A stretch of 64,000 nucleotides of DNA from NCBI GenBank assembly GCA_045646345.1, contig JAZRKN010000009.1, positions 19,599 through 83,598 of the forward strand, written 5' to 3'. Origin of the DNA: Candidatus Scatovivens sp. (GTDB lineage: Bacteria > Bacillota > Clostridia > TANB77 > CAG-508). The position numbers and the translations under genes were made by a program. The notes under the pieces are model-generated. The model was not told the origin of the DNA, did no database searches, and saw only the letters and a list, made by a program, of their open reading frames with translations. This document shows, piece by piece, positions 3,284-50,174 of this stretch (the first letter of the stretch is position 1; each line of letters begins with the position of its first letter).

Positions 3284-3300
3284 TAAAAAACAAGATAGAT

Positions 3301-3337
3301 AAAAGCTCTATGACGTAATGAAAATAGGGCTTTTATT
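3301..3337 (+). terminator. Rho-independent terminator after the tasA-like gene
   Basis: aaagctctat / atagggcttt stem (one G-U pair) followed by TTTATTT. Confidence 0.5.
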
Positions 3338-3395
3338 TAAATATATTGACAAAAGGTTTTAACTTTTTGTGAGTATATTTAAGGAAAGAGTAAAT

Positions 3396-4112: not shown

Positions 4113-4133
4113 AGTTTATTTGAAAGGGTACAA

Positions 4134-5256: not shown

Positions 5257-5275
5257 AATTTGGAAAGGACGTAAA

Positions 5276-11191: not shown

Positions 11192-12121
11192 TTAAATTTT
11201 ATTATTTGTTCTTCTTTTTGGAAGTGGCTTTGAAGAGATTACTGTTGGCGAAACTTCAAAAACAATATTAAAACAATCAAATTTATACATTTCATTATTA
11301 TCTAAATAATCTAAGTAAATATCAAGTTCATCAATATTTCTACAAGCCGCTATAATTGCTGGATGTAGGTTGTAATTGAAAAATAATTCAACTCCTAATT
11401 CTAGTCCGTCTTTTGTTGATAGATTTTCTTTGTTCTTTATCAATTTAAAGGCTTCTTTAAATCTAGATATTGAAGCATTTTTGAAGAACGATAATGGAAT
11501 TGTATAATGTGTTTGAATAATTTCTTCATATGATGAAAATTTATTTTTATTAGCAGAAAAGATTTGCTCTAATTCATGATATGTATATGGTAAAAAAACA
11601 GTTTGTTTTGTTTCTGAAATTACTAGAGTGTTTTCTCTTTTTAAGTCTTCTGGTAAATTATTTTTTAATTCTTCGAAATTGACAATAGGATCAGCTTCAG
11701 TTAATTCTAATTTTATATTTATGTTTTGGTCTGAAAATTGATTTAATGCTTTTTCAATTTGTAGAGTATTTAATTGAACAGTACTATAAGCTTCCGAAAA
11801 AGTAGAATTAAAGTTGTTAATTTTTTCTTCAGTTAGTGAATTCATGTTATTCTCTTTTATTGCATTTGTTAGAATTGTAAGCAATAGGTTTAATTTATTT
11901 AAAATTGCAATATTAGAATTAGAAACTTCAAGAGTTTCTTTTAGAAAATTTACTATTTCTGGGGTTGAATTATTTTTTTGAAATTTATCAAGATATTTTG
12001 AAATAGTTTCTTTTTTTATGTTTTGTACATCTAACATTGATGATAAAATCTTTTTTTCATAATCCAAAAGCATATTAAATTTTTCATGATTTTTAATTAA
12101 TTCTTCTGTAAAAAATATCAT
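11192..12121 (-). CDS. Hypothetical cytoplasmic protein (309 aa)
   Basis: Long minus-strand ORF convergent with the giant gene and sharing its terminator; no recognisable motif. Confidence 0.5.
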   Translation of the reverse strand: MIFFTEELIKNHEKFNMLLDYEKKILSSMLDVQNIKKETISKYLDKFQKNNSTPEIVNFLKETLEVSNSNIAILNKLNLLLTILTNAIKENNMNSLTEEKINNFNSTFSEAYSTVQLNTLQIEKALNQFSDQNINIKLELTEADPIVNFEELKNNLPEDLKRENTLVISETKQTVFLPYTYHELEQIFSANKNKFSSYEEIIQTHYTIPLSFFKNASISRFKEAFKLIKNKENLSTKDGLELGVELFFNYNLHPAIIAACRNIDELDIYLDYLDNNEMYKFDCFNIVFEVSPTVISSKPLPKRRTNNKI

Positions 12122-15300: not shown

Positions 15301-17392
15301 AATAGAAAATGAAATAGAAGAAAATGTTAGAAATGTATTTTTAGAAAGCTTAGCATTTATTCCAGAATTAGTTACAGAAAATGGTGTAGCAAATTTTAAA
15401 ACAGAGATTAGTGATAATATAACAACTTGGAATATTCAAACAATAGGAAATACAAAAGAAGGAAATGTAGGATTTGGTTCAGGAAGTTTTAAAGTATTTA
15501 AAGAATTTTTTGTAGAATATACTCTTCCGGCAAATTCGGTTGTTACAGATAAAGTAAGTATTCCAGTAACACTACATAATTATACAGAAAAAAATCTAAT
15601 AATTGATTTATTAGTAAAAGAAAATGATTGGGCGATTATTGGTGATTATGAAAAACAAAATGTAGTTGAAGCTAAATCAACAAAAATGATATATGTACCA
15701 ATTGAAATTTTAAAAGATGGAAACAATACATTAAGAATAGAAGCGAATTCAGGAAAAAAATCAGATATAGTTGAAAAAACGTTAGTTGTTAAACCTAATG
15801 GTTTAGAAAAAAATGTAGTAGTTTCAAGCGGAATGATTGAAAATAAATATTCTCAAGATATCATATTTAATGAAAAAGCGATTGAAAAAACTGAAAAAAT
15901 AAAAGTAAAATTATATGCATCGCCAGTTGTTCAAGCGATAGAAAATATAGATGCTATGTTAAGAATGCCAACAGGATGTTTTGAACAAACTTCTTCTTCG
16001 TTATATCCAGATATTTTAGTTTTGAAATATTTAAGAGAACATGATTTAAGTAATAAAGAATTAGAAGAAAAAGCGTTAAATTATATATCTAAGGGATATC
16101 AAAAGTTATTAACTTATGAAGTAAAAACTAAAAAAGGTGGATATTCATTGTATGGATATGCACCAGCAGAACCTGTAATAACAGCCTTTGGGTTAATGGA
16201 ATTTAATGAACTTTCAGAAGTTTATGAAGTTGAAGAAAAAGTTATTGATAATATGGTTGAGTATTTATTTGATGTTCAAAATGTAAATGGAAGTTTTGAT
16301 TATAATACTGTTTATATTGGTGGAACTGCTAGTAGAGATGATTTAGCAATGAATGCATATATTATTTGGGCTTTATCAGAGGTTGTTCCAAATGATAAGA
16401 GATTAGAAAAATCAATAAGTTATTTAGAAAATAAATTAGATAAAATTAAAGATAACTATACATTAGCATTAATTGCAAATATTTTTGCTAATACTGATAA
16501 TAAGAATTCAGCAAATGAAGTTTTAAAAATGATAAATCAAAATATTAAAGTAACAGAAAATGGTGCTTATATTGCTTCAAATATTTCGGATTATTATGGA
16601 ACAAGAGGTAATCATCAAAATAACCAAGCGACAGCACTAACATCAATGGCTTTGACTAAACTAAATTCAAATCAAAAAAATAATGAAGAATTTGTAAAAT
16701 TCTTAGTAAGTCAAAAAGATAAATATGGAAGTTGGGGAACAACACAAGCAACAGTACTTGCATTAAAAGCAATTAATAGCTTTACTCAAAATTCTGATAT
16801 TAAAGATCAAACAATAACTATAAAATTAAATGATAAAGAAGAAAAAATAGAAATAAAAGAAAATGCTTTAGATGTTTATGAAGTAGAGTTTGATAATGTA
16901 TCAAAAGAAAATAGATTATTAATTGATATGAAAAAAGGTAAAATAACATATGAAGTAATTAAAAATTATTATCAAAGTTATGCAGAAATAGATGATGATT
17001 TACAAAATGAGAATAAATTAAGTGTAGTACAGAACTTAAGTAGTGTAGCAAAAGTAAACGATATAATTACTCAAAACATATCAATAAAAAATAATAAAAC
17101 ATATATTGAAAATGGATTGATAGAAATTAATATACCACAAGGAACTACTCCGGTAGAAGCTTCATTAATGAATTTGAAATATAATGGAATAATTGAAAAA
17201 TATGAATATAATTATAATAAAATTAATCTTTATATAAGGGGATTTGAACCTGGAGAAGAAGTATTATTGGATATTCAATATAGAGCATTATATCCAGAAA
17301 ATATTACTGGTGGAGCAATAAGATTTTTTGATTATTATAATCCAGAAATTGAAGAAATTTGTTACCCAAAAGTTCTTATAGTAGAAGAATAA
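12335..17392 (+). CDS. Alpha-2-macroglobulin family thioester protein with an embedded polytopic membrane domain
   Basis: N-terminal signal anchor; MG-like repeats; about 8 TM helices (roughly nt 14280-15030); Ser/Thr/Asp-rich linker; FLESLAFIPEL...DNITTW (A2M FPETWLW...DSITTW region); MLRMPTGCFEQTSSSLYPDILVLKYL matching the A2M thioester [23 protein letters not shown]; TAFGL motif. Confidence 0.8.
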   Translation: MTRKKVGKFLLYIIIAMLIISSCYCFWSYFSKGKQKITVKTSNNCYSGESINATIAVMNVKTNKAIDAKITATLYDSDDKKVKDVVTKMEIEKGEAGELALNVPEDLKSGKYTLKIKSNSGFYSDTAEIPINVKNDKKSNVIISFDKGIYKPGDEINYRILMLSKRDETPLSQNIKVSIYDGNDNRVYIEEAVTSEYGIISGKFKLADEVNSGTYKLKVESDRQEVTKTFNVNPYIIPTFEVEVSSDKDNYIVGDVAKIKVDAKYFFGEPVKKAEIKGTVDGKEVVGLTDENGSFTYEYKFGKASKIVADFTVVDSSNYLIEASKILCCGTALYEVEVIPEYSDIAYGFDNDIYVITKKIDGTPVKTYSTLKIGKISKQVISDENGIGKVTITSSETEELPKKEMLSVKVESEDMESNKVTKTHQLLIHDAFPNLIKTNKTKYNAGEDIEIKLNSKVNTNTKNIYVFKSNELIKTIVTDDDNVKINLGDVSGLVDLYIPNQKNMSTIYNYYDDFYETYKVNIDYSKKTIFIKPEKELNILVEPVKDEYKPGDTLDVKFTTTNEQNELVNSALLVSILDEAILALADNDLSIDNIKLALEDIVLEPGMTAADLYVMALDESSDLAFNSVLLKQKVTNPDIYTKNYRNYETEIYLMFGIIAIIVAAILIALSYIAKNKEKVAKVIIPVIDVLAIFILMYIYAEEVFGLIDNLFMVFATFILSIIAYLLFLYKERDFIFKLVSEMIVIPIVSIIGIFLISILVSLVFDIYIPKIFALVLGVVVLLILLEFAILKSLQRKRGLNKVLTKIFEFSKLISRAVVFWFLTIVLTEITEFGLLIVLALYYLYRKFILKEAKTKVEDGKIVLNLNVSELVGMLIGMLLIIIVIVIVISSNLNDYRVMNDSVTSDVTAPSLPMKDSTTNSSTVTLDFSQVTEDMIISGASDATGAGSSINNSFGSMFDFDLNIMQDSKAESSVEMSTEDFVSEGDNSNEIENEIEENVRNVFLESLAFIPELVTENGVANFKTEISDNITTWNIQTIGNTKEGNVGFGSGSFKVFKEFFVEYTLPANSVVTDKVSIPVTLHNYTEKNLIIDLLVKENDWAIIGDYEKQNVVEAKSTKMIYVPIEILKDGNNTLRIEANSGKKSDIVEKTLVVKPNGLEKNVVVSSGMIENKYSQDIIFNEKAIEKTEKIKVKLYASPVVQAIENIDAMLRMPTGCFEQTSSSLYPDILVLKYLREHDLSNKELEEKALNYISKGYQKLLTYEVKTKKGGYSLYGYAPAEPVITAFGLMEFNELSEVYEVEEKVIDNMVEYLFDVQNVNGSFDYNTVYIGGTASRDDLAMNAYIIWALSEVVPNDKRLEKSISYLENKLDKIKDNYTLALIANIFANTDNKNSANEVLKMINQNIKVTENGAYIASNISDYYGTRGNHQNNQATALTSMALTKLNSNQKNNEEFVKFLVSQKDKYGSWGTTQATVLALKAINSFTQNSDIKDQTITIKLNDKEEKIEIKENALDVYEVEFDNVSKENRLLIDMKKGKITYEVIKNYYQSYAEIDDDLQNENKLSVVQNLSSVAKVNDIITQNISIKNNKTYIENGLIEINIPQGTTPVEASLMNLKYNGIIEKYEYNYNKINLYIRGFEPGEEVLLDIQYRALYPENITGGAIRFFDYYNPEIEEICYPKVLIVEE

Positions 17393-22429: not shown

Positions 22430-23167
22430 ATGATAAGTTTACCAGAAGAAAAAATTTTGTATTCAGAAATACAAAAAAAGTTGTTTTATATAATACCTGA
22501 GAAATGGGAAAGTATATATTTATATGCTTCTGTAATTGATATGCCAAATCAAAAACCTGTTGGAGAAATGTATTTTTACTACTTACCAAAAGGTATAATA
22601 AAAAAGAAATTTGTTAATGGCTATGAGATTCCATCAATTTTTAATATTGATGAAGAACAATATTCTAAATTAATTACAGATGTTTATAATTTAATAAAAT
22701 TATTACGTGAACGTGCTGTAGAAACAAAAAGAAAAGTTTGGAGTAATATAAATATCACAATTGAGAATTTTAAATTTAAAATAGAGTTTGATTACGAAGA
22801 TTTAAAAAAATCTGAATTTGATTCTTATGAACGTCATGTAATATGGAGATATAATTATTTAAAAGAGGATTCGGAAGTTTTAAGTAGAAAAGATAGAAAG
22901 ATAATTGATAAATATTTAAAATATACAGAAACAAGAATCCCGTTAAAGAAAGATTCTTATATTGAAGGAATATATAAACAACCTGTTAAAAATATTATAG
23001 ATTTTGAAAAGACTTTAACAGTTGAAGAAGCTATAGCTCAATCTAATGAACCGAAAGAGAAAAAGAAAAAAAGAATTTTTGGTAACAAGAATAAAATAGA
23101 TGATGTTATTGACGAGGATGATGAAAATCAAACATATAATAATCAGATATTAAATTGGAAAAAATAA
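22430..23167 (+). CDS. DUF600 / YezG-family (polymorphic-toxin immunity-like) protein with C-terminal K/E/D-rich extension
   Basis: LYSEIQKKLFYIIPEKWESIYLYASVID...EMYFYYLP...FDYEDL...HVIWRYNYL follows the DUF600 (YezG/TIGR01741) pattern; starts 16 nt after the gpmI stop with an AGGAGA RBS. Confidence 0.55.
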   Translation: MISLPEEKILYSEIQKKLFYIIPEKWESIYLYASVIDMPNQKPVGEMYFYYLPKGIIKKKFVNGYEIPSIFNIDEEQYSKLITDVYNLIKLLRERAVETKRKVWSNINITIENFKFKIEFDYEDLKKSEFDSYERHVIWRYNYLKEDSEVLSRKDRKIIDKYLKYTETRIPLKKDSYIEGIYKQPVKNIIDFEKTLTVEEAIAQSNEPKEKKKKRIFGNKNKIDDVIDEDDENQTYNNQILNWKK

Positions 23168-37158: not shown

Positions 37159-37731
37159 ATGAAATGTAGAATTTGTGGAGCAAAATTAAAAAAAGATGGA
37201 GATATATGTACAACATGTTACAAAGAATTCCAAGAAGAGGAAGATCTAAAAAAAGATACTAATGAAAGACTAAAAATTAAAAGAAAATATTCTATTAGTT
37301 ATGAAATCTCAAAATGTACAGAAATAATTATATTAGCAATACTTTCTATAATTTTATGTTTGTCAGCAGGAGGAATATTAGAAACATTAGGTGTTGTATT
37401 AATATTTGCTGCAATTATTGGAATTGTGCTTTTTATAGATAAAAGATTAGCAATGGCAACAAAAGCGGTTTTTTATGATAAGAAAACAGTATATACATTT
37501 AAATTTTTATTTTTTGATGTAACAAAAGTTGTAAAATATACGGATATTGCTGATGTTAGATATTTCCAAACACGTAGACAAAAGAAATATGGTTTTGGAG
37601 ATTTATGCGTATATGCAAAAGGAGTAATACCAGGAGCTGGCTTTTTAAATGGATATCAGATTAAAAATATTGAAAATGTAGAAGAAGTATTAAGTCAAAT
37701 TGGTGAAATTGTAGGACCAATCGAGGAATAA
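37159..37731 (+). CDS. Hypothetical membrane protein with N-terminal zinc-ribbon (CxxC...CxxC)
   Basis: MKCRICGAKL...DICTTCY followed by two TM helices; sits where dxr/ispG usually lie. Confidence 0.5.
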   Translation: MKCRICGAKLKKDGDICTTCYKEFQEEEDLKKDTNERLKIKRKYSISYEISKCTEIIILAILSIILCLSAGGILETLGVVLIFAAIIGIVLFIDKRLAMATKAVFYDKKTVYTFKFLFFDVTKVVKYTDIADVRYFQTRRQKKYGFGDLCVYAKGVIPGAGFLNGYQIKNIENVEEVLSQIGEIVGPIEE

Positions 37732-37746: not shown

Positions 37747-40700
37747 ATGCCAAAATATATAAAAGAAGTTTTCAATGATTATGTGATTGATAATAATTTA
37801 ATAGAAGCAGAAATTGAGAATATAAATTTATATAAAAAAACGAATAAATTACAAATAAAATTAGCATCTTCAAAAGTTATAACTTTGCAAAACATAGAGA
37901 GTTTTGAGGAATATTTGGTAAAGACTTTTAAAGTAAATAAGGCTTCTATTGATATAAATTATAATGATGTAGTAATTGATCAAAATATATCAGAAAATTG
38001 GAATAATATAATTAAATATATTGCCAAAAAAGAACCTTTTAGTAAAGCAATTTTAACAAATAGTAAAATTGAAATACAAGACTCTGATGTTGTTAAGGTA
38101 AAGTTAGCTATGAAAGGTGCTTCTTTTTTAGTTGCTCAAAAATTTGATAAAGGATTAGAGCATCTATTTAGTAACCTTTATAACAAACAATACGTTGTAG
38201 AGTTTATTGAAGATGTTTCGGAAAATTTTGAAAAAGAGTTAATTGAAAGAAGGAAACAAGAAGAAAAAGAAGCTTTAATGGAACTTGAAAGACAAGCTTT
38301 AATTGAAGTAGAACAAGCAAAAGAAAGAAAGAAACAAGAAAAAGAAGCTGAAAAAGAAAGAAAACGTGAAGAAGATGAAAAACTAAAAGAAACTTTAAGA
38401 CAACAAAATCCAGAACTTGCTGCAAAAATTGAAGCTCATCAAAATAAAGACCCTGAAGTTAAGGACGAAGCATCACCTTTAATTTTAGGTAGAAGCATGA
38501 TGATAAGAACTGAACTTGTAAAAATAGAAAATATTCCAATGACAGAAGATGCGGATATAAGAGTTTGTGTTGATGGAGAAATTTTAGATGGTTCAATTGA
38601 TTCGAGAGATATAAAAGATGAAAAAACAATCTTGATGTTTAATCTTTTTGATGGAACAAGTACTATTGGTTGTAAAGCTTTCTTGCCTAAAGATAAATTA
38701 AAAGAAGTAAAAGGAAGAATTTCATCTGCAAAAGGTTTAAGAATAGAAGGGCAAGCAAGATATAGTCCATACTCAAAAGAAGTTGAAATTATGGCGAATA
38801 CAATATTAGAATCAACTGGTTTCAAAAAAGAAAAGAGAATGGATAATAGTGAACAAAAAAGAGTTGAGCTTCATATGCATACTCAAATGAGCCAAATGGA
38901 TGCTATTACTCCTTGTAGTGATTTGATAAAAAGAGCAATTTCATGGGGATGGAATTCAATTGCAATTACAGATCACGGTGTTGTTCAAAGTTTCCCGGAT
39001 GCGCATAAGCTTTTGGGAAAAGTAGGAGATGTTATTAAAGTTATATATGGAGTTGAAGCTTATTTCTGTCCAGATAAAGATCCTGCTGTAATAAATTCAA
39101 AAGGTCAAGAAATAGATACAGAATATTGTGTATTTGACTTAGAAACAACAGGTTTATCACATATAACAGAAAAAATTACAGAGATTGGTATTATAAAAAT
39201 AAAAAATGGTGAAGTAATTGATACTTTTGAGACATTTGTAAATCCAGAAAAACCAATACCACAAGAAGTTGTAGAAGTAACTCATATCACAGATGATATG
39301 GTAAAAGATGCAGAAACAATTGATAAAATAATGCCAAAAGTATTAGAGTTTATGAAAGGTTCTGTTTTAGTAGCTCATAATGCCGATTTTGATATTGGTT
39401 TTATGAAATATAATTGTGAGCAATTAGGATTACCTTTTAACTTTACTCATATAGATACACTTCGTTTAGCGAAAGCTATATTCCCAGAATTTACAAGATA
39501 TAAATTAGGATTTATAGCAGATAAATTAGGTATAAAAGTAGAAGTTGCACACCGTGCTTTAGATGACGTTAAAACTTTAGTTCAAGTATTTAACGAAATG
39601 ATTTTAAAAGCTAAAGACAGAGATGCAAAGACGATAGATGATTTTGATAATGTATTTGAAACTGATTTTAGAAAACTACCAGCATATCATATGATAATTT
39701 TAGCAAAAGACTATGTTGGACTAAAAAATCTTTATAAATTAGTATCTTATTCGCATTTGGATTATTTCTATAAAAAACCAAGGATATTAAAATCTATGCT
39801 TAATCAATATAGAGAAGGGTTAATTATAGGAAGTGCGTGTGAAGCGGGAGAACTTTATAGAGCGATTGTTTCGGGAAAATCTGATGAAGATTTAGAAGAA
39901 ATAGCAAGTTACTATGATTATTTAGAAATTCAACCTTTGGCAAATAATGAATATATGATTCGTGAAGGTCAAGTTGAAAGTTGGGATACATTAAGAAACT
40001 TCAATAAAAAAATAGTTGAGCTTGGAGAAAAGATGAATAAACCTGTAGTAGCTACATGTGATGTTCATTTCATGGATCCTCAAGATGAAGTATATAGAAG
40101 AATACTTCAAGCTGGTCAAAAATATGATGATGCAGATAATCAAGCTCCGCTTTATTTAAGAACAACAGAAGAAATGCTTGAAGAATTTAGTTATTTAGGA
40201 GAGGAAAAAGCATTTGAAGTTGTTGTAACAAATACAAATAAAGTTGCGGATATGTGTGAAAGAATAAGACCTATTTCACCTGAAAAATGTCCGCCACATA
40301 TCCCGGGATGTGAAGAGGATATTAAAAGAATTACTTTTGAAAAAGCTCATGAACTATATGGTGATCCACTTCCAGAAATAATTCAAACAAGGCTAGATAA
40401 AGAATTAAATTCTATTATAAATAATGGATATTCCGTAATGTATATTATTGCTCAAAAGTTAGTTTGGAAATCAAATGAAGATGGATATATAGTAGGTTCC
40501 AGAGGATCTGTTGGTTCATCTTTGGTAGCATTTATGACGGGTATTACAGAAGTAAACTCACTTCAACCACATTATAGATGTCCAAAATGTAAATATTCTG
40601 ATTTTACAGATTATGGAATTGGAAATGGATATGATCTTCCGGATAAAGATTGTCCAGTATGTGGTGAAAAACTTGCTAAAGATGGAATGGATATACCGTT

Positions 40701-42174
40701 TGAAACTTTCCTTGGATTTAATGGAGATAAAGAACCTGATATCGACTTAAACTTCTCAGGAGAATATCAAGCAAAAGCACATAAATATACTGAAGTTATA
40801 TTCGGAAAAGGTACTACTTATAAAGCTGGAACAGTTGGTACTGTTGCTGATAAAACTGCCTTTGGATATGCAAAAAATTATTTTGAAGAAAGAAATATAA
40901 TAAAACCAAATGCTGAGGTTGCAAGAGTTTCTGCAGGTTGTGTTGGAGTAAAAAGAACTACTGGACAACACCCGGGAGGAATCATAGTTGTACCTAAAGG
41001 AAGAGAAATTTTTGAGTTTACTCCTGTACAACACCCAGCAGATGATGCAGGTTCTGATATCGTAACAACTCATTTTGATTATCACTCAATAGATGCAAAT
41101 TTATTGAAGCTTGATATTCTGGGTCATGACGATCCGACAGTTATTCGTATGCTTCAAGATTTGAGTGGAATAGCGCCAACTCAAATTCCACTGGATGATA
41201 AAGAAACAATGTCTATATTTAATTCTACAGATGCTCTTGGAGTGACTCCAGAACAAATAGGTTCAGAAGTAGGAACTTTTGGGATACCAGAATATGGTAC
41301 AAAATTTGCTCGAGGGATGCTTGTGGACACTCGTCCAACAACATTTGATGAATTAATTCGTTTGTCTGGTTTATCACATGGTACAGACGTATGGCTTGGA
41401 AATGCTCAAAGTTTAATTGAAGAAGGAGTGGTTACTCTTAAAGAAGCAATATGCTGTCGTGATGATATTATGGTTTATTTAATGAAAAGAGGATTACCAC
41501 CAGATAAAGCATTTAAGATAATGGAAACAGTTCGTAAAGGAAAAGCTTTAAAAGATCCTGAAAAATGGGAAGGATTTAAAGCGGTTATGAAAGAGTTTGA
41601 TATACCAGAATGGTATGTAAAATCTTGTGAGAAAATAAAATACATGTTCCCTAAAGCCCATGCTGCAGCTTATGTAACAAATGCGTTTAGAATTGCTTGG
41701 TTTAAAGTACATATGCCACTTGCTTATTATGCTGCATATTTTACTATTAGAGCAAAAGCATTTGATGCTGAATTTATGATAAATGGAAAAAGAATTGTAG
41801 AAGATAAAATGAAAGAAATTACTGCACTTGGAAACAATGCTGCACCAAAAGATAAAGACATGTATGATGACTTAGAACTTGTGCATGAAATGTATGAAAG
41901 AGGATTAGAATTTTTACCAGTAGATTTATATAAATCGCATAGTACCAAATTCTTAATCGAAGATGGAAAACTTCGTCCACCTCTAAATTCAATTGCTGGT
42001 CTTGGAAATGTTGCTGCTGAAAGTATTTATGCGGCAAGATGTGAAGAACCATTCGAATGTATTGAAGACTTACAAGCGCGTTCTAAGATAGGAAAATCAA
42101 TTACTGAACTTTTAGAAAAGTTTGGTTGCTTAAAAGGAATGACTAAATCAAATCAAATGAGCTTATTTGTGTAA
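37747..42174 (+). CDS. polC: DNA polymerase III alpha subunit, PolC type (Gram-positive)
   Basis: 1475 aa; PHP domain (HMHTQMS), DEDDh 3'-5' exonuclease domain (CVFDLETTG...HRALDD), zinc-finger insertion (CPKC...CPVCG), polymerase core. Confidence 0.95.
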   Translation: MPKYIKEVFNDYVIDNNLIEAEIENINLYKKTNKLQIKLASSKVITLQNIESFEEYLVKTFKVNKASIDINYNDVVIDQNISENWNNIIKYIAKKEPFSKAILTNSKIEIQDSDVVKVKLAMKGASFLVAQKFDKGLEHLFSNLYNKQYVVEFIEDVSENFEKELIERRKQEEKEALMELERQALIEVEQAKERKKQEKEAEKERKREEDEKLKETLRQQNPELAAKIEAHQNKDPEVKDEASPLILGRSMMIRTELVKIENIPMTEDADIRVCVDGEILDGSIDSRDIKDEKTILMFNLFDGTSTIGCKAFLPKDKLKEVKGRISSAKGLRIEGQARYSPYSKEVEIMANTILESTGFKKEKRMDNSEQKRVELHMHTQMSQMDAITPCSDLIKRAISWGWNSIAITDHGVVQSFPDAHKLLGKVGDVIKVIYGVEAYFCPDKDPAVINSKGQEIDTEYCVFDLETTGLSHITEKITEIGIIKIKNGEVIDTFETFVNPEKPIPQEVVEVTHITDDMVKDAETIDKIMPKVLEFMKGSVLVAHNADFDIGFMKYNCEQLGLPFNFTHIDTLRLAKAIFPEFTRYKLGFIADKLGIKVEVAHRALDDVKTLVQVFNEMILKAKDRDAKTIDDFDNVFETDFRKLPAYHMIILAKDYVGLKNLYKLVSYSHLDYFYKKPRILKSMLNQYREGLIIGSACEAGELYRAIVSGKSDEDLEEIASYYDYLEIQPLANNEYMIREGQVESWDTLRNFNKKIVELGEKMNKPVVATCDVHFMDPQDEVYRRILQAGQKYDDADNQAPLYLRTTEEMLEEFSYLGEEKAFEVVVTNTNKVADMCERIRPISPEKCPPHIPGCEEDIKRITFEKAHELYGDPLPEIIQTRLDKELNSIINNGYSVMYIIAQKLVWKSNEDGYIVGSRGSVGSSLVAFMTGITEVNSLQPHYRCPKCKYSDFTDYGIGNGYDLPDKDCPVCGEKLAKDGMDIPFETFLGFNGDKEPDIDLNFSGEYQAKAHKYTEVIFGKGTTYKAGTVGTVADKTAFGYAKNYFEERNIIKPNAEVARVSAGCVGVKRTTGQHPGGIIVVPKGREIFEFTPVQHPADDAGSDIVTTHFDYHSIDANLLKLDILGHDDPTVIRMLQDLSGIAPTQIPLDDKETMSIFNSTDALGVTPEQIGSEVGTFGIPEYGTKFARGMLVDTRPTTFDELIRLSGLSHGTDVWLGNAQSLIEEGVVTLKEAICCRDDIMVYLMKRGLPPDKAFKIMETVRKGKALKDPEKWEGFKAVMKEFDIPEWYVKSCEKIKYMFPKAHAAAYVTNAFRIAWFKVHMPLAYYAAYFTIRAKAFDAEFMINGKRIVEDKMKEITALGNNAAPKDKDMYDDLELVHEMYERGLEFLPVDLYKSHSTKFLIEDGKLRPPLNSIAGLGNVAAESIYAARCEEPFECIEDLQARSKIGKSITELLEKFGCLKGMTKSNQMSLFV

Positions 42175-42209: not shown

Positions 42210-42503
42210 ATGAAAGCATTACTTGGATTAATTAATTGGAAATATGTTTTAATTTATTTACTTGCTATAAATGTTATTGGTTTTCTTGCAATGGGAATCG
42301 ATAAATTAAAGGCAAAAAAAGATTGGTGGAGAATTCCAGAAGGCACTTTAATGACAATATGTTTATTGGGTGGAGGAATTGGAACAATTGCTGGTATATA
42401 TACATTTAGACATAAAACAAAAAAATTAAAATTTACAGTAGGAATGCCAACAATTTTGATTTCTGAAATTGCTTTAGTGATATATTTGTTTATAAAATAT
42501 TAA
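42210..42503 (+). CDS. DUF1294 family membrane protein
   Basis: 97 aa with 3 TMs, DUF1294 pattern (GIDKLKAKKDWWRIPE...LGGGIG). Confidence 0.6.
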   Translation: MKALLGLINWKYVLIYLLAINVIGFLAMGIDKLKAKKDWWRIPEGTLMTICLLGGGIGTIAGIYTFRHKTKKLKFTVGMPTILISEIALVIYLFIKY

Positions 42504-42636
42504 TACAAAAAATATTGTATTATATTATAAAAAACAGAAGAGGAATATTACATATTTTATACAAATACAGTAAGTATCTTGATTTTTAAACTAGTTGAGA
42601 TATAATTTTGTTGTAAAATATATTAGGATGTAGAAT

Positions 42637-45600
42637 ATGAAAAAATTAGTTAGTTTAACATATCCGCAAAAATCAATACTACTTACAGAGAAGTTTTACA
42701 AAAATGCTTCTATGAATAATATTTGTGGGACAGCAATTATCGATTCTGTTCTTGATTTTGATGCGTTAAAACAAGCAATAAAAGTTGTAATAAAGGAAAA
42801 TGATGTATTCCATATTCACTTATCTCAAAAGAAAAATGAAGTAAAACAATTTATATCATATAATGAAATTACTGATATAGAAATAATAGATATAAAAGAT
42901 GAATCAGAAGTATACTTAATAGAAGATGCATTGATGGCAAAACAATTTAATTTATATGAATCTGATTTATTTGAGTTTAAAATTTTTAGATTTGAAAATG
43001 GTGCTGGAGGTTTTTTATTAAACATTCATCACATTATTTCTGATGGTTGGACATTAGGTTTAACTTGTAGAAAAATTATGAAAGCATATTCAAATATTAA
43101 AAATAATGAAAACGGAGAAGAAGAGACTTTTTCGTATATTGATTATGCAAAAAATGAAGAAGAATATTTTAATAGTTTAAAATTTCAAAAAGATAAAGAA
43201 TACTGGAATGAATTATTTTCAGAAAATATAAATCCAGCAATTTTACCTTCAGATAGTTCTGAGAAAAATACAGAATTTTCATGTTTAGGAGAAAGAATGA
43301 CTTTCTCTATTCCAAAAGCCAAAATGAAAATAATTAATGAATATTGTAGTAAAAATAAATTGACTGTATTCAATTTTCTTATGGCAATTTATTCAGTTTA
43401 TATTTCAAAAATTATTGGTTCAGATGATTTTAGTATTGGAACACCAATATTAAATAGAACAAATTTTAAAGAGAAAAATATAATTGGTATGTTTGTAAAT
43501 GTTGTTCCTTTTAAAGTAAAGGTAGAACAATCTGCAGACTTTATTAGTTTTGCAAGTAATCTTTCAAAAGATACTGTTTCATTATTAAGACATCAAAAAT
43601 ATCCATATCAAATGTTATTAGAAGATTTGAGAAAAAAAGACTCTTCAATTCCAAATCTTTATAACGTTGTTTTGTCATATCAATTAACAAAAGCTAACAA
43701 TGAAACTGAATACAAATATTCAACTAGATGGGCATTCAATAAGAATGTAACTGACGATATGACTATTCAATTTTTGGATTTAGATGAACAAGGAATATTA
43801 ACTGTTTGTTATGATTTTAAAAAATTAAAATATTCAAATGAATATGTGAAAAATATGCATTCTAGAATTTTAGAAATGATTAATAAAGTCTTAGAAACAG
43901 AAAATATATGTGTAAAAGATATAGAAATCATTACTAAAAATGAAAGAGAAAAACTTTTAGTTGATTTTAATAATACTGAAGTTAAATATGATAAAAATAA
44001 GAATGTAATAAAAACATTTAAAGAAATGGTAAAAAAATACCCAGAGAAAATTGCTATAAGCTTTGAAAATAGACAAATGACTTATAAAGAATTGAATCAA
44101 AAATCAAATATTTTAGCTAATAGTTTAATTAAAGAAGGAGCAAAAGCAAAAGATATAATTGCTATTTGTGTAAATCGTTCTTTGGAATTAGCTATTGGTC
44201 TTTTAGCAATATTAAAAGTTGGAGCAGCATATTTACCAATAGATCCAGAATATCCAGAAGATAGAATTGAGTATATGTTAACAGATAGTAATGCTAAAAT
44301 GATACTTTCAAATAAGAGAACTCAAAGTGCAATAAATGAAAAAATAAAAATAAAAAGAATTGATATTGGATTAGAATCTACTGTTTACAATAGAGAAAAT
44401 ATAGAAATTGAAGAAAAAATATTACCAGAAGATTTGATTTATTTGATATATACTTCAGGTTCTACTGGAAAACCAAAGGGTGTTATGTTAAAACACAAAA
44501 ATATAATTAATTTCTTACTTGGAACAAAGGAAGTTATTGATTTTAATCCAGAAAAAATAATGGTATCAATAACTACAATATGTTTTGATATATTCGTTTT
44601 AGAATTTTGGGGTGCATTAACTTCTGGTATGACATTGGTTTTAGCAAATGAAGTAGAACAAAATAATGCTGTGGCGTTAAATAAACTTTGTTTAGAAAAT
44701 AAAGTAACTATGATTCAAACCACTCCTTCTAGATTTAAAGCATTACTTGAAAATAAATCTGCAACTGAGTTTGTCAAAAAAATGACAGATATTATGGTTG
44801 GAGGAGAAGGACTACCAAAAGGTTTGATTGACAAGTTTGAAGGTTTAACTAATGCTAATATTTTTAATATGTACGGTCCAACTGAAACGGCAGTATGGTC
44901 TACTATTAAAAAGGTTAGAAGCAAAGATAAAATTACAATAGGAAAACCGATTGCAAATACTAAATGCTATATTTTGGATAAAGATCAAAATATACTTCCA
45001 ATATATGTTCCAGGGGAATTATATATCGGTGGGGATGGAGTTTCTAGAGGATATTTAAATAGAGATGAATTAACAAATGAGAAATTCATTAAATCTCCAT
45101 TTGAAAAAAATGAGATTATTTATAATACAAATGATTTGGCTTATTATACAAATAGTGGAGAAATAGTTCATTTAGGAAGAACTGATTTTCAAGTTAAAAT
45201 TAGAGGTTATAGAATTGAGCTTGAAGAAATTGAAAACGAAGTAAATAAGATACCTGGAATTTTAAATAATGTGGTAGTGGCAGATGAAAATCAAAAATAT
45301 TTGATTTGTTATTATATATCTAATGAAATTCAAGATACCAATAAAATAACTGCTAGTCTACTAAAAGAACTTCCTAATTATATGATACCAGCGGTATTTT
45401 TCAAGATTGATGAATTTCCACTTACTCCAAATGGAAAATTGGATAGAAAAAAATTACCGAAAGTAAAATTAGAAACAACAAATCTTAATGTAGGACAAAC
45501 AAAGACAGAGAAAATCTTAACTAAAATTATTGCTGAAATTTTAGAAGTAGAAAAAGTAGATATAGATACACCTTTTATGGTATTAGGATTAGATTCTTTG

Positions 45601-46941
45601 GGAATTATTGAGGCGCAAACAATGCTTCTTCAATATAATTACAATTTAAATACACAAGACTTTTATAAATTTACAACTATAAGAAGTTTGGCTGAAAATA
45701 TAGACAGTAATTCGAAGAGTGATAAAAATCAAGATTATCAAATACCAGAAAAATTCAAACATAATATAGAAAAAAATGATTTAGATGATTTGACTAAAGA
45801 AAATGATTCACTAGGAAATGTATTTTTGACAGGAGCAAATGGTTTTATAGGAATACATTTGTTAAATGAATTATTAAAAAATACAGAGTCTAAAATTTAT
45901 TGCTTAGTAAGAGGTAAGAGAGAACAAACTCCAAAAGAAAGATTGATAGAACAATACAAATTTTACTTTGGAGAAGATTTATCAAGTTATTTAGAGAGTA
46001 GAGTTATTGTTGTTGACGGTTCTATTTCAGAAAATAATATAGGATTAACAGATAATGTGATAAAAAAATTAAAAGAAGATGTTTCAACAGTAATACATAC
46101 AGCAGCTAGAGTAAAACACTATGGAGAATATAAAGAATTTGAAAGAATAAATATTGATGGAACAAGAAATGTAGCTGAGTTTTCTTTAGAAAATAATTTT
46201 AAACTTATACATATATCTTCAATAAGTGTATCTGGAAATTATCTTGTAAAGCAAGATAATAGAGATTTAGATTTTACAGAAAATGATTTATATATAGGAC
46301 AAAATTATAAAGATAATGTATATGTTAATAGTAAATTCGAAGCGGAAAAAATAGTATTAGACTATATGGAAAAAGGATTAGTTTCGCAAATCCATAGAAT
46401 TGGAATTTTGTCAGGAAGATTTTCGGATGGTAAATTTCAAGAAAATATATCAGAAAATGCATTTTATACAAGAATAAAGTCAATGGTTGTTTTAGGATGC
46501 GTTTCAAAAGAAATGTTAGAACAAAAAATAGAATTTACACCAGTTGATGTTTGTTCTAAAGCGATAATAAATCTTGCAAAAACGAATGTTGCAGATAATA
46601 AAGTTTTCCATTTATACAATCATAATTTTATTGAAATTAGAGAGATTGTAGAAGGATTAAAATCTATTGGAGTTAATATTAAGATTGTTTTTGAAGAGGA
46701 ATTCCAAAATAAAATATTAGAAATTTCAAAAGGAAAAGATGCTCAAATTTTATTTGGAATAATAAATGATATAAATAATACAAAAAATTCAAAGATATCT
46801 ATTGACTATAATTTTTCTGTAAATATAAAATCTGATTACACACAAAAATATTTGAAAAGTTTAAAAACAGAATGGAATAAGATTGATAAAAAATATATAG
46901 AAAAAATTGTAAAATACATGAGAGAAGTTAAGTTTATTTAA
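42637..46941 (+). CDS. Single-module nonribosomal peptide synthetase, C-A-T-R (terminal thioester reductase)
   Basis: C domain with HHIISDGWTLG; A domain cores LIYTSGSTGKPKGV, NMYGPTETAV, GELYIGGDGVSRGYLN, YNTNDLAYY, GRTDFQVKIRGYRIELEEIE and LPNYMIPAVF...LTPNGKLDRKKL; PCP LGLDSLG (about 45586-45600); R domain with VFLTGANGFIGIHLL NAD(P) motif (about 45800-46941). Confidence 0.85.
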   Translation: MKKLVSLTYPQKSILLTEKFYKNASMNNICGTAIIDSVLDFDALKQAIKVVIKENDVFHIHLSQKKNEVKQFISYNEITDIEIIDIKDESEVYLIEDALMAKQFNLYESDLFEFKIFRFENGAGGFLLNIHHIISDGWTLGLTCRKIMKAYSNIKNNENGEEETFSYIDYAKNEEEYFNSLKFQKDKEYWNELFSENINPAILPSDSSEKNTEFSCLGERMTFSIPKAKMKIINEYCSKNKLTVFNFLMAIYSVYISKIIGSDDFSIGTPILNRTNFKEKNIIGMFVNVVPFKVKVEQSADFISFASNLSKDTVSLLRHQKYPYQMLLEDLRKKDSSIPNLYNVVLSYQLTKANNETEYKYSTRWAFNKNVTDDMTIQFLDLDEQGILTVCYDFKKLKYSNEYVKNMHSRILEMINKVLETENICVKDIEIITKNEREKLLVDFNNTEVKYDKNKNVIKTFKEMVKKYPEKIAISFENRQMTYKELNQKSNILANSLIKEGAKAKDIIAICVNRSLELAIGLLAILKVGAAYLPIDPEYPEDRIEYMLTDSNAKMILSNKRTQSAINEKIKIKRIDIGLESTVYNRENIEIEEKILPEDLIYLIYTSGSTGKPKGVMLKHKNIINFLLGTKEVIDFNPEKIMVSITTICFDIFVLEFWGALTSGMTLVLANEVEQNNAVALNKLCLENKVTMIQTTPSRFKALLENKSATEFVKKMTDIMVGGEGLPKGLIDKFEGLTNANIFNMYGPTETAVWSTIKKVRSKDKITIGKPIANTKCYILDKDQNILPIYVPGELYIGGDGVSRGYLNRDELTNEKFIKSPFEKNEIIYNTNDLAYYTNSGEIVHLGRTDFQVKIRGYRIELEEIENEVNKIPGILNNVVVADENQKYLICYYISNEIQDTNKITASLLKELPNYMIPAVFFKIDEFPLTPNGKLDRKKLPKVKLETTNLNVGQTKTEKILTKIIAEILEVEKVDIDTPFMVLGLDSLGIIEAQTMLLQYNYNLNTQDFYKFTTIRSLAENIDSNSKSDKNQDYQIPEKFKHNIEKNDLDDLTKENDSLGNVFLTGANGFIGIHLLNELLKNTESKIYCLVRGKREQTPKERLIEQYKFYFGEDLSSYLESRVIVVDGSISENNIGLTDNVIKKLKEDVSTVIHTAARVKHYGEYKEFERINIDGTRNVAEFSLENNFKLIHISSISVSGNYLVKQDNRDLDFTENDLYIGQNYKDNVYVNSKFEAEKIVLDYMEKGLVSQIHRIGILSGRFSDGKFQENISENAFYTRIKSMVVLGCVSKEMLEQKIEFTPVDVCSKAIINLAKTNVADNKVFHLYNHNFIEIREIVEGLKSIGVNIKIVFEEEFQNKILEISKGKDAQILFGIINDINNTKNSKISIDYNFSVNIKSDYTQKYLKSLKTEWNKIDKKYIEKIVKYMREVKFI

Positions 46942-46955
46942 ACGGAGGGATACTT

Positions 46956-48961
46956 GTGAGAAATAAGAAAAAGATAAAATGGAATAGTACACCAAGTAAT
47001 ATAATATCATTCAGATATGCTACTATAGCTTTTTTGATTATATTAGTATTAATGCTTATAATACCTAAAATTTTAAATTATGGACCTGGAACAATAAATA
47101 CACCATTTGATATACAAATGTCTTATGTTTCATTTAATACACAATTTTTGATTTTGGGAATTGTAATTGTTTTGGGAATTGTATTTTTCACAAAGATTGC
47201 CCTAAGAGATATTGATAAGTGGTATAAAATATCTTTAACCAAAAGATATAGTGATAAAGAAAAAATAAAGCAAATTAGAACGAAATGCTTAAGTCTACCG
47301 TATCAATTTTATGCATTTGAGATATTAACACCGTCATTGGTAACAATATTGTTTTTATCGTTAACGGGTAGCCATTTAAGTATAATGATTGCAAAAATTA
47401 TTATATTATTAGCAGCATTTTCAATACTATTGGGTGTTGTATCATTTATATTTTCAAAAAACTTATATGATGAAATATTAACGCAAACTTATATAGAAGG
47501 TTCTGATATTGGATTTAGAGTAAGTCTAAGAAAAAGAATTATTATACTATTATTTCCAATATTTATAGCATCTATAATACTTACTGCGCTTGTGGGATAT
47601 TCAGCTAGTGTTATAGAAAAAGAAGATGCTTTTTATAAAATTTACAATGAGGCTTTAGCAGAAAATTTTGATAAAGAAAAAATATATACACATGAGGAAA
47701 TAAAAAACATTGCCCAAAGAATTAATTTATACACTGATACAGATAGAGTGTTTATTTTAAAACAAAACAAAACCTATGATATGGTAAAAGGGGAAAAAAT
47801 AAGTAATTTTATTGTTGAGTATACGATTCAAATATCTGAACAAAATAATGGAAGATTATATGATAGTTATGGTGTTGATACACAAGGTGCTTCTATAAAA
47901 TTAAAAACAGATAATGGTGAAGTATATGTTGGAATTTTATATGATATTTATGCAGAAACTGCATTTAATTATTTAATACTAACAGCATTATTCTTATTTG
48001 GTATAAGTGGAATTATTATAACTATATTTGCGTCATCAATTTCAAAATCTTTAAGACAAATTCATAAAGGTTTTAGAAATATTTGCGCAGAAAGTGGAAA
48101 AGAAATGCTTTTACCTGTTGTATCGAATGATGAAATTGGTGATTTGGTTGTAGCATTCAATGATATTCAAAAATTAAATAATGCTCAAATAGAAGATATT
48201 CATAATAAACAAAATATGCTTGTTGAAAGAGAACGTTTAGCTTCTTTAGGACAAATGGTTGGAGGAATTGCACATAGTTTAAAAACACCAATTTTCTCAA
48301 TATCAGGAGGAGTGACAGGTTTAACTGATTTGGTAAATGAATTTGATGCATCAATAGGAAATCCAACTGTAAATGATCAAGATATGCATGAGATTGCAAA
48401 TGATATGAGAGTATGGCTTCAAAAAATAAAAGGACAGCTATCATACATGTCTGAAGTAATAACAACTGTAAAAGGACAAGCTGTTAATCTTTCTGGTGAT
48501 GATACGGTTGATTTTACAATAAAAGAATTATTTAGTCATACAAATATTTTGATGAAACATGAACTTCAATCAGCTTTGGTAACATTAAATATTAAAAAGG
48601 AAGTTGATAATAGTATAATTTGAGAAGGAAATATAAATAGTTTAGTACAAGTATTAAATAATTTAATCTCTAATGCAATACAAGCATATAAAAAAGCGCC
48701 AAATAAATCTATTGATTTAAGTGCTAAAATAAAAGATAATAATATTGTTATTTCTGTTAAAGATTATGGACCAGGAATTCCAGAAAATATTAAAGATAAA
48801 TTGTTTAAAGAAATGATAACAACAAAAGGAAAAGAAGGAACTGGGCTTGGAGTGTTTATGTCATATTCAATGATAAAAGCTAAATTTAATGGAGATATAA
48901 AATTAGATACTTCAAGTAACGGAACAGAATTTACGATATATTTACCAATGAATAATAAATA
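46956..48961 (+). pseudogene. Sensor histidine kinase interrupted by a single in-frame TGA (48621-48623) between the DHp and HATPase_c domains
   Basis: Fragment 46956..48623 has an N-terminal polytopic sensor, HAMP and H-box (LASLGQMVGGIAHSLKTP); the in-frame continuation 48624..48961 encodes N-box LVQVLNNLISNAIQAY, G1 VKDYGPGIPE, F-box and G2 GTGLGVFMS but has no start codon; GTG start with GGAGGGA RBS. Confidence 0.7.
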
Positions 48962-48978
48962 ATTTGTGGAGGTATACA

Positions 48979-50046
48979 ATGAGATTATCAGCACAGCAAA
49001 ATGAAAACTTAAATGAAAAGAAAAATTATAAAATTATAGCAGTAGACGATGAGATTGGAATCATAGATTCTTTATCTGTATTTTTAAGACATTCAGGATA
49101 TACATTAGTTGGATGTACAGATCCTTATGAAGCTATTGAAAAAGTTAAAAATGAAAAATATGATTTGATGCTATTAGACTTTATGATGTCACCAATTCAT
49201 GGAGATACTGTTGTTGAAGAAATTAGAAAATTTAATAAAGAATTATATATAATTTTATTAACTGGTCACAAAGACTTAGTACCACCACTTGAAACTATTA
49301 AAAGATTATCTATTCAAGCATATTGTGAAAAAGAGGATAAATTTGATCAATTATTATTGCTTATAGAATCTGCATTTAAATCAATAGAACAAATGCAAAC
49401 AATAAAAGAAATGAATGAAGAATTAAAAGCTTCAAAAGAAAAAATTGAAAAAGCATATTTAGAAACAATCCAAATGTTAAGATATACAGTTGAAGCAAAA
49501 GATACTTATATAAGAGGACATTCTGATAGAGTTTCTGCATATTCTGTTTTAATAGGACAAGAACTGGGTCTTTATGATAAGGATATTGCAACTTTGAGAA
49601 TAGGTGGACTTTTCCATGACATTGGTAAAATAGGAATATCAGATACCATTTTATTAAAACCATCAAAGTTAACTGAAGAAGAATATAGCGAACTAAAAAA
49701 ACATCCATCTATTGGAAAACAAATTGTATCAACATCTTCGATTTTTAGAGATATTGTTCCAATTATTTATTCTCATCATGAAAGATTTGATGGTAATGGG
49801 TATCCACAAAAATTAAAAGGAGATCAAATTTCATTTTTGGCAAGAATCGTGAGTGTTGCCGATGCATTTGATGCAATGACTTCAAGACGTTCTTATAGAG
49901 ATGAGATGGATTTAGAATATGTTACAAATCAAATAAGAGAAGGTGCGGGAACACAATTTGATCCAGAAGTTGCAAATGTAATGCTAAATATATTAACAAA
50001 TAAATTAGATAAAATAAACGAAATAAGAAGTAAATTTCCTTGCTAG
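48979..50046 (+). CDS. Response regulator with receiver domain and HD-GYP phosphodiesterase output (RpfG-like)
   Basis: REC domain (IIAVDDE...LMLLDFMM); HD-GYP motifs HSDRVSAYS, LFHDIGKIGI, HHERFDGNGYP; ORF track starts at 48964 but ATG 48979 has the GGAGG RBS. Confidence 0.8.
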   Translation: MRLSAQQNENLNEKKNYKIIAVDDEIGIIDSLSVFLRHSGYTLVGCTDPYEAIEKVKNEKYDLMLLDFMMSPIHGDTVVEEIRKFNKELYIILLTGHKDLVPPLETIKRLSIQAYCEKEDKFDQLLLLIESAFKSIEQMQTIKEMNEELKASKEKIEKAYLETIQMLRYTVEAKDTYIRGHSDRVSAYSVLIGQELGLYDKDIATLRIGGLFHDIGKIGISDTILLKPSKLTEEEYSELKKHPSIGKQIVSTSSIFRDIVPIIYSHHERFDGNGYPQKLKGDQISFLARIVSVADAFDAMTSRRSYRDEMDLEYVTNQIREGAGTQFDPEVANVMLNILTNKLDKINEIRSKFPC

Positions 50047-50077
50047 ATAAATACAAAAATAATATAAGAAATAAGAG

Positions 50078-50108
50078 TATAACCGAAAAAATATACTCTT
50101 ATTTTTTA
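50078..50108 (+). terminator. Rho-independent terminator after the response regulator
   Basis: aagagtata...tatactctt hairpin followed by ATTTTTT. Confidence 0.7.
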
Positions 50109-50174
50109 TGTAATAAAATGTCAAAAAAAGTTATAAAAATGATAGGAATTAATTAATATTTTGCACTATTTTTC

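Follow-up and report, generated by a model that had tools for sequence, protein, structure and literature searches.

The window described here, that is, the whole 64-kb stretch of DNA that was analysed (contig JAZRKN010000009.1, from a Candidatus Scatovivens genome; ~26% GC), carries a gene for a nonribosomal peptide synthetase (NRPS) that is followed on the same strand by the genes for a histidine kinase and for a response regulator formed by a receiver (REC) and an HD-GYP domain. The synthetase has a single module, in which a condensation (C), an adenylation (A), a carrier (T) and a thioester reductase (R) domain follow one another, and the three genes are found side by side in related gut Clostridia as well. 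The elements of the locus are the following:

42579..42606, plus strand: sigma-70-type promoter-like element, TTGATT / TATAAT, found by a consensus scan with 10/12 matches
42637..46941, plus strand: NRPS gene, C-A-T-R, 1434 amino acids (aa), ATG start, domains assigned with Pfam and NCBIfam
42646..43959, plus strand: C domain, aa 4-441 (PF00668, E 6e-77), with HHIISDGW at aa 131-138
44017..45438, plus strand: A domain, aa 461-934 (AMP-binding 461-807, E 5e-86; AMP-binding_C 864-934)
45517..45696, plus strand: T domain, or peptidyl carrier protein (PCP), aa 961-1020 (PF00550, E 1e-8), with LGLDSLG
45817..46938, plus strand: R domain, aa 1061-1434 (TIGR01746; PF07993 NAD_binding_4 at 1064-1310, E 4e-47)
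46956..48962, plus strand: histidine kinase gene, 668 codons, GTG start, interrupted in the window strain
48621..48623, plus strand: in-frame TGA at codon 556 of the kinase gene, which cuts off the ATPase domain
48979..50046, plus strand: response regulator gene, REC and HD-GYP, 355 aa (Pfam Response_reg, HD_5 and HD)
50062..50111, plus strand: hairpin with a T-run, putative operon terminator (minimum free energy -19.5 kcal/mol, z = -8.65 against shuffles)

From the promoter-like element, the ribosome-binding sites (RBSs), the spacing of the genes and the terminator, it is predicted that the three genes form a self-contained operon with the NRPS gene in the first place. Both hexamers of the promoter-like element are identical in two relatives, L001 and L029, whose NRPSs are 82% and 71% identical to that of the window, and a conserved AGGA RBS comes after them; the TTGATT / TATAAT pair thus probably functions as a promoter. 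The GTG of the kinase gene (46956) is located 14 nt past the NRPS stop codon and 7 nt past a GGAGGG RBS, and the ATG of the regulator gene (48979) 16 nt past the kinase stop codon and 7 nt past a GGAGG RBS. An earlier reading of these letters (the original prediction) had the NRPS gene flanked by a DUF1294 membrane protein gene upstream and by a two-component system downstream. All these genes are indeed there, but the two-component genes are not a mere flank, since they proved to be the conserved partner of the NRPS; moreover, the kinase open reading frame (ORF) is broken by a TGA codon, and the output of the system is an HD-GYP domain and not a DNA-binding one. The DUF1294 gene was considered as a further member of the operon and rejected, given that it accompanies the NRPS only in the syntenic close relatives L001, L029, L031 and L032, whereas L024, L026 and the more distant loci lack it.

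The association of the three genes was followed in the loci reached through homologues of the NRPS or of the kinase sensor (L001-L013 and L024-L034), 22 of which have downstream DNA; L014 was left out because its contig ends within the NRPS gene. The kinase gene lies immediately 3' of the NRPS gene in every one of these (22/22), and in 20/22 it is followed by the regulator gene, of which a contig end may leave only the start. The two loci where no regulator was seen are L027, whose contig ends within the kinase gene, and L028, which has no regulator gene after the kinase (4917-5495). The regulator arm also varies in L034, where the REC/HD-GYP gene is split by a frameshift (2917-3979), and in L033, where an extra DUF3369 domain lies between REC and HD-GYP (3984-5486). 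The identity of the NRPS across the loci ranges from 33 to 82%, and the regulator is generally better conserved, with 56-96% where it could be aligned in one piece and 45-61% for the partial or split matches in L003 and L005. The flanks of the three genes vary: polC, DUF1294 and TPR genes in the window, L001, L029, L031 and L032, Zip and ArgRS genes in L024, genes for type IV secretion system (T4SS) pilins in L026, and a TraG-like gene in L028. In L026 (1-4825) the cassette abuts several T4SS pilin paralogues and a TraC-like gene, and in L028 (5563-7065) the gene of a TraG/VirD4-like coupling protein; these conjugation genes hint that the cassette may travel on mobile elements.

Two forms of the cassette can be told apart by the architecture of the synthetase. 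In the single-module loci, the kinases have 663-692 aa and share an orphan sensor with several transmembrane (TM) segments, an extracytoplasmic part and a HAMP domain, for which Pfam gave no match. In the loci with a bimodular synthetase the kinase has mostly ~600 aa (the kinase ORF of L006 has 361 aa), and the two that were scanned, those of L011 (14273-16078) and L012 (19035-20837), show HisKA_7TM and PAS domains, whereas their DHp-CA module and their HD-GYP regulator are the same as in the single-module loci. The type of sensor therefore co-varies with the architecture of the NRPS; judging from the domain content, the sensor module was swapped between both forms, and the transmitter and the output were kept. 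A cassette of this kind was not found described in the searchable literature, a search that did not extend to the original publications on the gut clusters already characterised, whose figures could show a kinase or a regulator; a product of a glycine-specific C-A-T-R enzyme was not found described in that literature either. In a rumen survey, AusA-like NRPSs are listed apart from RpfC/RpfG-like systems (PMC9540692).

The synthetase itself agrees with what had been proposed from the letters, i.e., a stand-alone C-A-T-R module: the ORF and all four domains were recovered, the motifs HHIISDGW and LGLDSLG were found at aa 131-138 and 983-989, and no second NRPS-like sequence was detected within the 64-kb window. 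The protein passed the model for amino-acid adenylation (TIGR01733, 410 bits versus a cut-off of 317) and remained slightly below the cut-off of the thioester reductase model (TIGR01746, 203 versus 213 bits); the carrier domain scored 35.8 bits with PF00550, the cut-off being 20.8. The core motifs of the A domain are present, with A3 LIYTSGSTGKPKG, A5 YGPTE and A8 GRTDFQVKIRGYRIELEEIE. The motifs of the C, A, T and R domains that were checked are conserved in 43/43 single-module homologues; this includes the phosphopantetheinyl serine, Ser987 within LGLDSLG (43/43), and HHxxxD, which is kept among the motif variants listed for these 43 proteins. In comparison with the conspecific strain L031 the gene shows 24 synonymous and 5 non-synonymous differences, and purifying selection acts on the NRPS, whose C-A-T-R module is intact. 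The motif LGLDSLG (45583-45603) is more similar to those of polyketide synthases (PKSs) and acyl carrier proteins (ACPs) than to the GGxS usual in NRPSs, and the PP-binding score is correspondingly low, with 36 bits in the window and matches described as 'weak' or 'faint' in the relatives.

An exact-sequence look-up of the window NRPS gave no match; the protein P0001, 99.7% identical to it, led to the conspecific contig. When genomes were searched with the NRPS, the closest match was a Clostridia metagenome-assembled genome (MAG) from the cecum of a roe deer, with 82% identity, and the relatives are Clostridia MAGs from gut samples of roe deer, human, rabbit, sheep and Hadza people. All of them belong to uncultured Clostridia of the gut, and no functional name is attached to any; this is consistent with the setting in anaerobic Firmicutes that had been supposed, and the window NRPS is related to bimodular R-terminated NRPSs of gut Clostridia.

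To read the substrate pocket of the A domain, positions were assigned through the GrsA numbering and by aligning the domain residue by residue with A domains of solved structure. The specificity code is DILQMGMVWK, formed by D651, I652, L655, Q694, M720, G722, M745, V753, W754 and K934; the equivalents of Asp235 and Lys517, whose loss would speak for an inactive domain, are D651 and K934, and both are there. The code takes the form DILQ[M/L]G[M/L]VWK in 43/43 single-module relatives, and the bimodular relatives have mostly the same type of pocket in A1 and a variable one in A2. When the A4-A5 specificity stretch was compared with the sequences in the PDB, the best matches were DhbF-A1 (5U89), 8XJZ, AB3403 (4ZXH) and LgrA-A2, and the aligned pockets read DILQLGLIW in 5U89 and DILQLGVVW in 4ZXH. 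Module 1 of DhbF, AB3403 (crystallised with glycine) and module 2 of LgrA are glycine domains (PMC10510592). Because the pocket stretch matches these glycine domains and the code is kept throughout the family, it is very probable that the A domain activates glycine. A 629-bit match to LgrA in the PDB was dropped as evidence for glycine, given that two A-domain matches (291 + 336 bits) had been added up in it.

Residue 4 of the protein is the first of the C domain, and no carrier domain lies ahead of it. Its mean identity to the C domains of 78 bimodular relatives (C-A-T-C-A-T-R, ~2475 aa) is 45% for C1 and 25% for C2; therefore, it appears to be the chain-initiating C type of its clade. By raw similarity to solved structures the scores were 102 bits for the LCL domain of TycC6, 61 for the lipo-starter domain of RzmA and 45 for CDA-C1. 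The earlier description of this domain as starter-like thus holds for its position and for its homology with C1, but not for the raw similarity, which favours TycC6 over RzmA and CDA-C1. Regarding the R domain, TGANGFIG is found at aa 1065-1072, S1195 occupies the position of the Thr in the 'STISV' of AusA, and Y1229xxxK1233 follows; these motifs are kept in 43/43 single-module homologues. The best solved homologues are the PCP-R didomain of Mru_0351 (6VTJ, 225 bits) and AusA-R (4F6L, 168 bits), and the Ser-Tyr-Lys triad S1195/Y1229/K1233 is aligned with the catalytic positions of both. With GxxGxxG and Ser/Thr-Tyr-Lys in place the R domain is intact, in agreement with the reductive release first envisaged.

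The product expected from this layout would be an N-acyl-glycinal or, with a second reduction, an N-acylethanolamine. N-acyl tails on gut clostridial peptide aldehydes were described by Guo et al. 2017, according to a review (PMC8210680), and aldehyde-forming and alcohol-forming R domains are not yet distinguishable from sequence (PMC8024701). Of the two kinds of product first envisaged, an N-acyl amino aldehyde or a pyrazinone, the former, as aldehyde or alcohol, is the one to be expected here; a pyrazinone is unlikely, as it would have to arise from a dipeptide aldehyde whose amine is free, whereas the window enzyme combines a single module with an intact C domain at its N-terminus and a pocket of the glycine type.

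The kinase is organised as a multi-TM sensor (aa 1-355), a HAMP domain, a DHp domain with the H-box GGIAHSLKTP (His440) and HATPase_c. The sensor shows approximately five TM helices, an extracytoplasmic domain of ~115 aa and a sixth TM helix, after which HAMP-DHp-CA follow, and the Pfam scan of this region gave no match. In a model obtained with AlphaFold2 (AF2) the mean pLDDT of the sensor is 68.6; the extracytoplasmic part, with 84-92, forms a unit of a helix and five strands that looks PAS/Cache-like. An exhaustive HMMER scan of 1.84 billion proteins retrieved 208 representatives of the orphan sensor (clusters at 50%), and on either side of members of this family with 35% and 26% identity an R-terminated NRPS and an HD-GYP regulator are likewise encoded. 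In the regulator, the motifs HDIGK and HHERFDGNGYP are intact and aligned with those of V-cGAP3 (5Z7C, 154 bits) and PmGH (4MCW, 135 bits), which are phosphodiesterases of cGAMP and of cyclic di-GMP (c-di-GMP), respectively. The architecture is that of RpfG, and the protein is predicted to be a cyclic-dinucleotide phosphodiesterase and not a transcription factor. Its gene differs from that of L031 by 2 synonymous and 0 non-synonymous changes.

The interruption of the kinase gene is peculiar to the window strain, as codon 556 is TTA (Leu) in L001, L024, L031 and L032, and TGA only here. The region past the TGA (48624-48959) still encodes an intact HATPase_c (80 bits), so the lesion is either very recent or a sequencing error. 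An alternative genetic code in which TGA is read through was rejected, since table 11 leaves the other long ORFs (up to 1701 aa) unbroken and the orthologues have TTA. In L031, a conspecific contig with 99% identity, the kinase is intact with 668 aa; the two kinase genes differ by 29 synonymous and 8 non-synonymous changes, L556* among them. Independent 1-nt frameshifts interrupt the kinase in three further lineages: in L024/L025 just ahead of the phospho-His (L024 15611-15613; two separate assemblies, with the product on 21 contigs), in L028 at codon ~431 (~4163), and in L029/L030 in the G1 box (L029 ~9815; two separate assemblies). In the four lineages the lesion falls in the DHp/CA transmitter and the sensor is spared, and the adjoining NRPS ORF is intact each time. 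By analogy, this pattern could correspond to the recurrent loss of receptors seen in quorum sensing, or else to a kinase that is dispensable.

Among known systems, the closest in host and chemistry are the gut-Clostridia reductase-terminated NRPSs that, as reportedly shown by Guo et al. 2017 in Cell, make dipeptide aldehydes or pyrazinones; Schneider & Balskus 2018 are said to have described another, the ruminopeptin rup cluster. These enzymes resemble that of the window in the host and in the terminal R domain, and some carry at the N-terminus a C domain through which an N-acyl tail is added; nevertheless, they have two modules, whereas the window enzyme has one with a glycine-type pocket, so that, if it works as predicted, neither a dipeptide aldehyde nor a pyrazinone can be its product. 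The products of the gut clostridial R-terminated NRPSs are, according to reviews, peptide aldehydes that inhibit proteases (PMC8210680, PMC12327764). The identity of the window NRPS to the ~2475-aa C-A-T-C-A-T-R relatives, which are uncharacterised MAG proteins, is 45-53% in the C-A part of module 1 and 38% in the R domain.

Individual parts of the synthetase have counterparts in characterised enzymes. MxcG of the myxochelin pathway has the same C-A-T-R order and is the best full-length architecture match in NCBIfam, but the score with its model (NF038078) is 513 versus a cut-off of 2300, and MxcG works with Lys and with an aryl carrier protein. AusA, the aureusimine synthetase, has an R domain that is a close solved homologue with aligned catalytic residues; in contrast, it is bimodular and without an N-terminal C domain, and the score with NF047350 is 778 versus 2500, over model positions 998-2370 only. 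Mru_0351 from the rumen archaeon Methanobrevibacter ruminantium provides the closest solved T-R didomain, matched end to end, and shares the gut/rumen habitat, but it forms the end of a multimodular NRPS of an archaeon, for which no product is known (PMC8024701). AB3403 from Acinetobacter baumannii (C-A-PCP-TE, where TE is a thioesterase) is also a stand-alone module with an N-terminal C domain, and its pocket, DILQLGVVW, is close to the DILQMGMVW of the window; it differs in its release by the thioesterase, in receiving the donor from a neighbouring carrier protein and in lacking a linked two-component system.

The arrangement of the whole cassette recalls instead RpfF/RpfC/RpfG, the system of the diffusible signal factor (DSF) of Xanthomonas, and CqsA/CqsS of Vibrio, in the logic by which an enzyme that makes a lipid signal is joined with a kinase of several TM segments and with a c-di-GMP-degrading REC-HD-GYP regulator. 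The differences are several: the synthase of the window is an NRPS, whereas RpfF is a crotonase and CqsA a pyridoxal phosphate (PLP) enzyme; RpfC is a hybrid kinase (HisKA-HATPase-REC-HPt), whereas the window kinase has HAMP-HisKA-HATPase_c only, with its orphan sensor; and the host is a Firmicute. The set of the window is thus an analogue and not a member of these systems, and the sensing of a signal is, in this case, deduced.

The recurrent joining of the NRPS to a kinase and a regulator in the relatives suggests a signalling unit made of a producer and a sensor, and not only a pathway for a protease inhibitor. By analogy with the systems just mentioned, we propose that the three genes form a producer, sensor and second-messenger module that would control cyclic dinucleotides by means of a ligand derived from an N-acyl-glycine, a reading to which we give a probability of approximately 0.5. 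According to it, the A domain would load glycine onto Ser987, and the N-terminal C domain would acylate its amine with an acyl thioester of primary metabolism (acyl-CoA or acyl-ACP); the R domain would then release, with NAD(P)H, an N-acyl-glycinal, which might be reduced further to an N-acylethanolamine. The small amphiphile released would be the ligand of the co-encoded kinase, and the latter would phosphorylate the REC domain and thereby switch the HD-GYP domain, so that c-di-GMP (or 3'3'-cGAMP) would fall. In the window strain, where the kinase may be truncated by a recent nonsense change, only the synthetase and an unphosphorylated regulator would be active.

Several observations weigh against this proposal. 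The adjacency of NRPS and kinase is compatible as well with a kinase that responds to another cue, and one member of the sensor family, with 22% identity, is not beside an NRPS; the search of the sensor model with Foldseek against the PDB gave no match at E <= 1e-3. The kinase is broken in four lineages, which can thus do without the sensing arm at least over short times. On the side of the output, the regulator is without a predicted DNA-binding domain, so there is no evident feedback on the transcription of the NRPS gene, and the Rfam scan of the window found no riboswitch (for c-di-GMP included) or other family at the gathering score. On the side of the synthesis, the C domain appears not to be nearest to the characterised lipo-starter C domains, no phosphopantetheinyl transferase (PPTase), ACP or acyl ligase was found within the 64-kb window, and release as an aldehyde or as an alcohol is not predictable from sequence (PMC8024701).

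The most direct alternative is that the locus encodes a protease-inhibitor pathway, in which an N-acyl amino aldehyde inhibits proteases of the host or of microbes and the two-component system answers an unrelated cue. This would be in line with the peptide aldehydes made by related gut clostridial enzymes (PMC8210680, PMC12327764) and with the intact R domain, and the dispensability of the kinase in several lineages where the NRPS was kept points in the same direction. Yet a lone glycine offers no side chain for recognition by the S1 site of a protease, a Gly-derived aldehyde being an unusual P1, and an unrelated cue leaves unexplained the strict order of NRPS, kinase and regulator across different contexts as well as the co-variation of sensor and architecture; we consider this reading unlikely. 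The synthetase could also be a terminal module that acts in trans, whose C domain would take an aminoacyl, aryl or peptidyl donor from a carrier protein or an NRPS encoded elsewhere, as AB3403, EntF and MxcG do, and whose product would be a larger peptide or an aryl-glycinal. The similarity of the C domain to the LCL type (TycC6, 102 bits) would fit such a role, stand-alone C-A-T-X modules like AB3403 and EntF do draw their donors from separate carrier proteins (PMC10510592), and MxcG is the best match in full-length architecture. However, neither the window nor the conserved part of the relative loci contains a carrier protein, a stand-alone A domain or a second NRPS, the three genes stay together from one genomic context to another, and the MxcG score is far under its cut-off, all of which makes this possibility decidedly improbable.

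Two other explanations appear to us still much less credible. If the amino aldehyde were released un-acylated, it could dimerise or cyclise to a pyrazine or a pyrazinone, as happens with the A-T-R and A-T-C-A-T-R enzymes that reach these compounds through amino aldehydes (AusA; PMC8210680), and the AusA model did give the top NCBIfam score, although for its module 2 only and far under the cut-off; nevertheless, a dipeptide cannot be formed by a single module, and the intact and conserved HHxxxD of the N-terminal C domain predicts a blocked amine, hence we hold very little expectation of this outcome. Nor is it at all probable that the stop codon in the kinase marks the decay of the locus, with the cassette being lost from the window strain and the NRPS no longer functional or expressed. 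The kinase lesions of the window and of the three other lineages, the loss of the regulator in L028 and its splitting in L034 could be taken as signs of such a process, but the 4.3-kb NRPS ORF is unbroken in a gene with 25% GC and has all its motifs intact, the 24:5 ratio of synonymous to non-synonymous changes, together with the absence of non-synonymous ones in the regulator, was obtained against a strain with 99% identity, and the perfect HATPase_c still encoded past the stop codon is what a very recent lesion or a sequencing error would leave.

Should the proposed producer-sensor module be correct, it would bear on the native role of the products of reductase-terminated NRPSs from gut Clostridia, which has so far been discussed in terms of the inhibition of host proteases. 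Here a clade of single-module and bimodular synthetases appears hard-wired to a sensor kinase and a predicted cyclic-dinucleotide phosphodiesterase, and this linkage makes it possible to test if the products act as signals, between cells or for self-sensing, in c-di-GMP-dependent behaviour. The prediction of glycine narrows the chemistry to two compounds, N-acyl-glycinal and N-acylethanolamine, that are easily synthesised and traceable by liquid chromatography coupled to mass spectrometry (LC-MS), and that, if gut bacteria make them, would be relevant to host signalling. The sensor of the kinase, 355 aa without a Pfam match, is a candidate for a new ligand-binding module, and the recurrent natural knock-outs of the kinase are ready genetic contrasts in metagenomes. 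A more general and rather doubtful extension, which we put forward tentatively, is that the reductase-terminated NRPSs of gut Clostridia are primarily autoinducer synthases, whose N-acyl amino aldehyde or alcohol would be sensed by a co-encoded kinase that diversified its sensor with the product and relayed by an RpfG-like HD-GYP protein to the level of cyclic dinucleotides, i.e., an NRPS-based quorum sensing of the Rpf kind in Firmicutes. If this were true, the single-module glycine clade would make endocannabinoid-like lipids (N-acyl-glycinal or N-acylethanolamine), and the frequent loss of the receptor kinase would parallel the 'signal-blind' variants of agrC or lasR.

The remaining features of the window are the following:

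6046-11151, plus strand: ORF of 1701 aa that precedes the alpha-2-macroglobulin-like gene, without Pfam match
11192-12121, opposite strand: ORF of 309 aa between the 1701-aa ORF and the alpha-2-macroglobulin-like gene, without match
12335-17392, plus strand: alpha-2-macroglobulin-like protein of 1685 aa, with MG2, bait region, A2M and thioester TED domains
22430-23167, plus strand: YezG-like immunity-protein gene located after pgm and before the spoIIIA operon, without an evident toxin partner in the vicinity
37159-37731, plus strand: ORF of 190 aa between rseP and polC, without match in Pfam or NCBIfam
37747-42174: polC, upstream of the NRPS gene
42210-42503: DUF1294 gene (E 1e-23), directly upstream of the NRPS gene

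Apart from these, the window corresponds to the core chromosome of a spore-former, with gap-pgk-tpi-pgm, the spoIIIA operon, pyrH-frr-uppS-cdsA-rseP, dpaA, uppP and a sortase gene. Every long ORF but one is located on the plus strand and the GC skew is >0 along the whole window (1-64000); therefore, the entire window lies on the leading strand.

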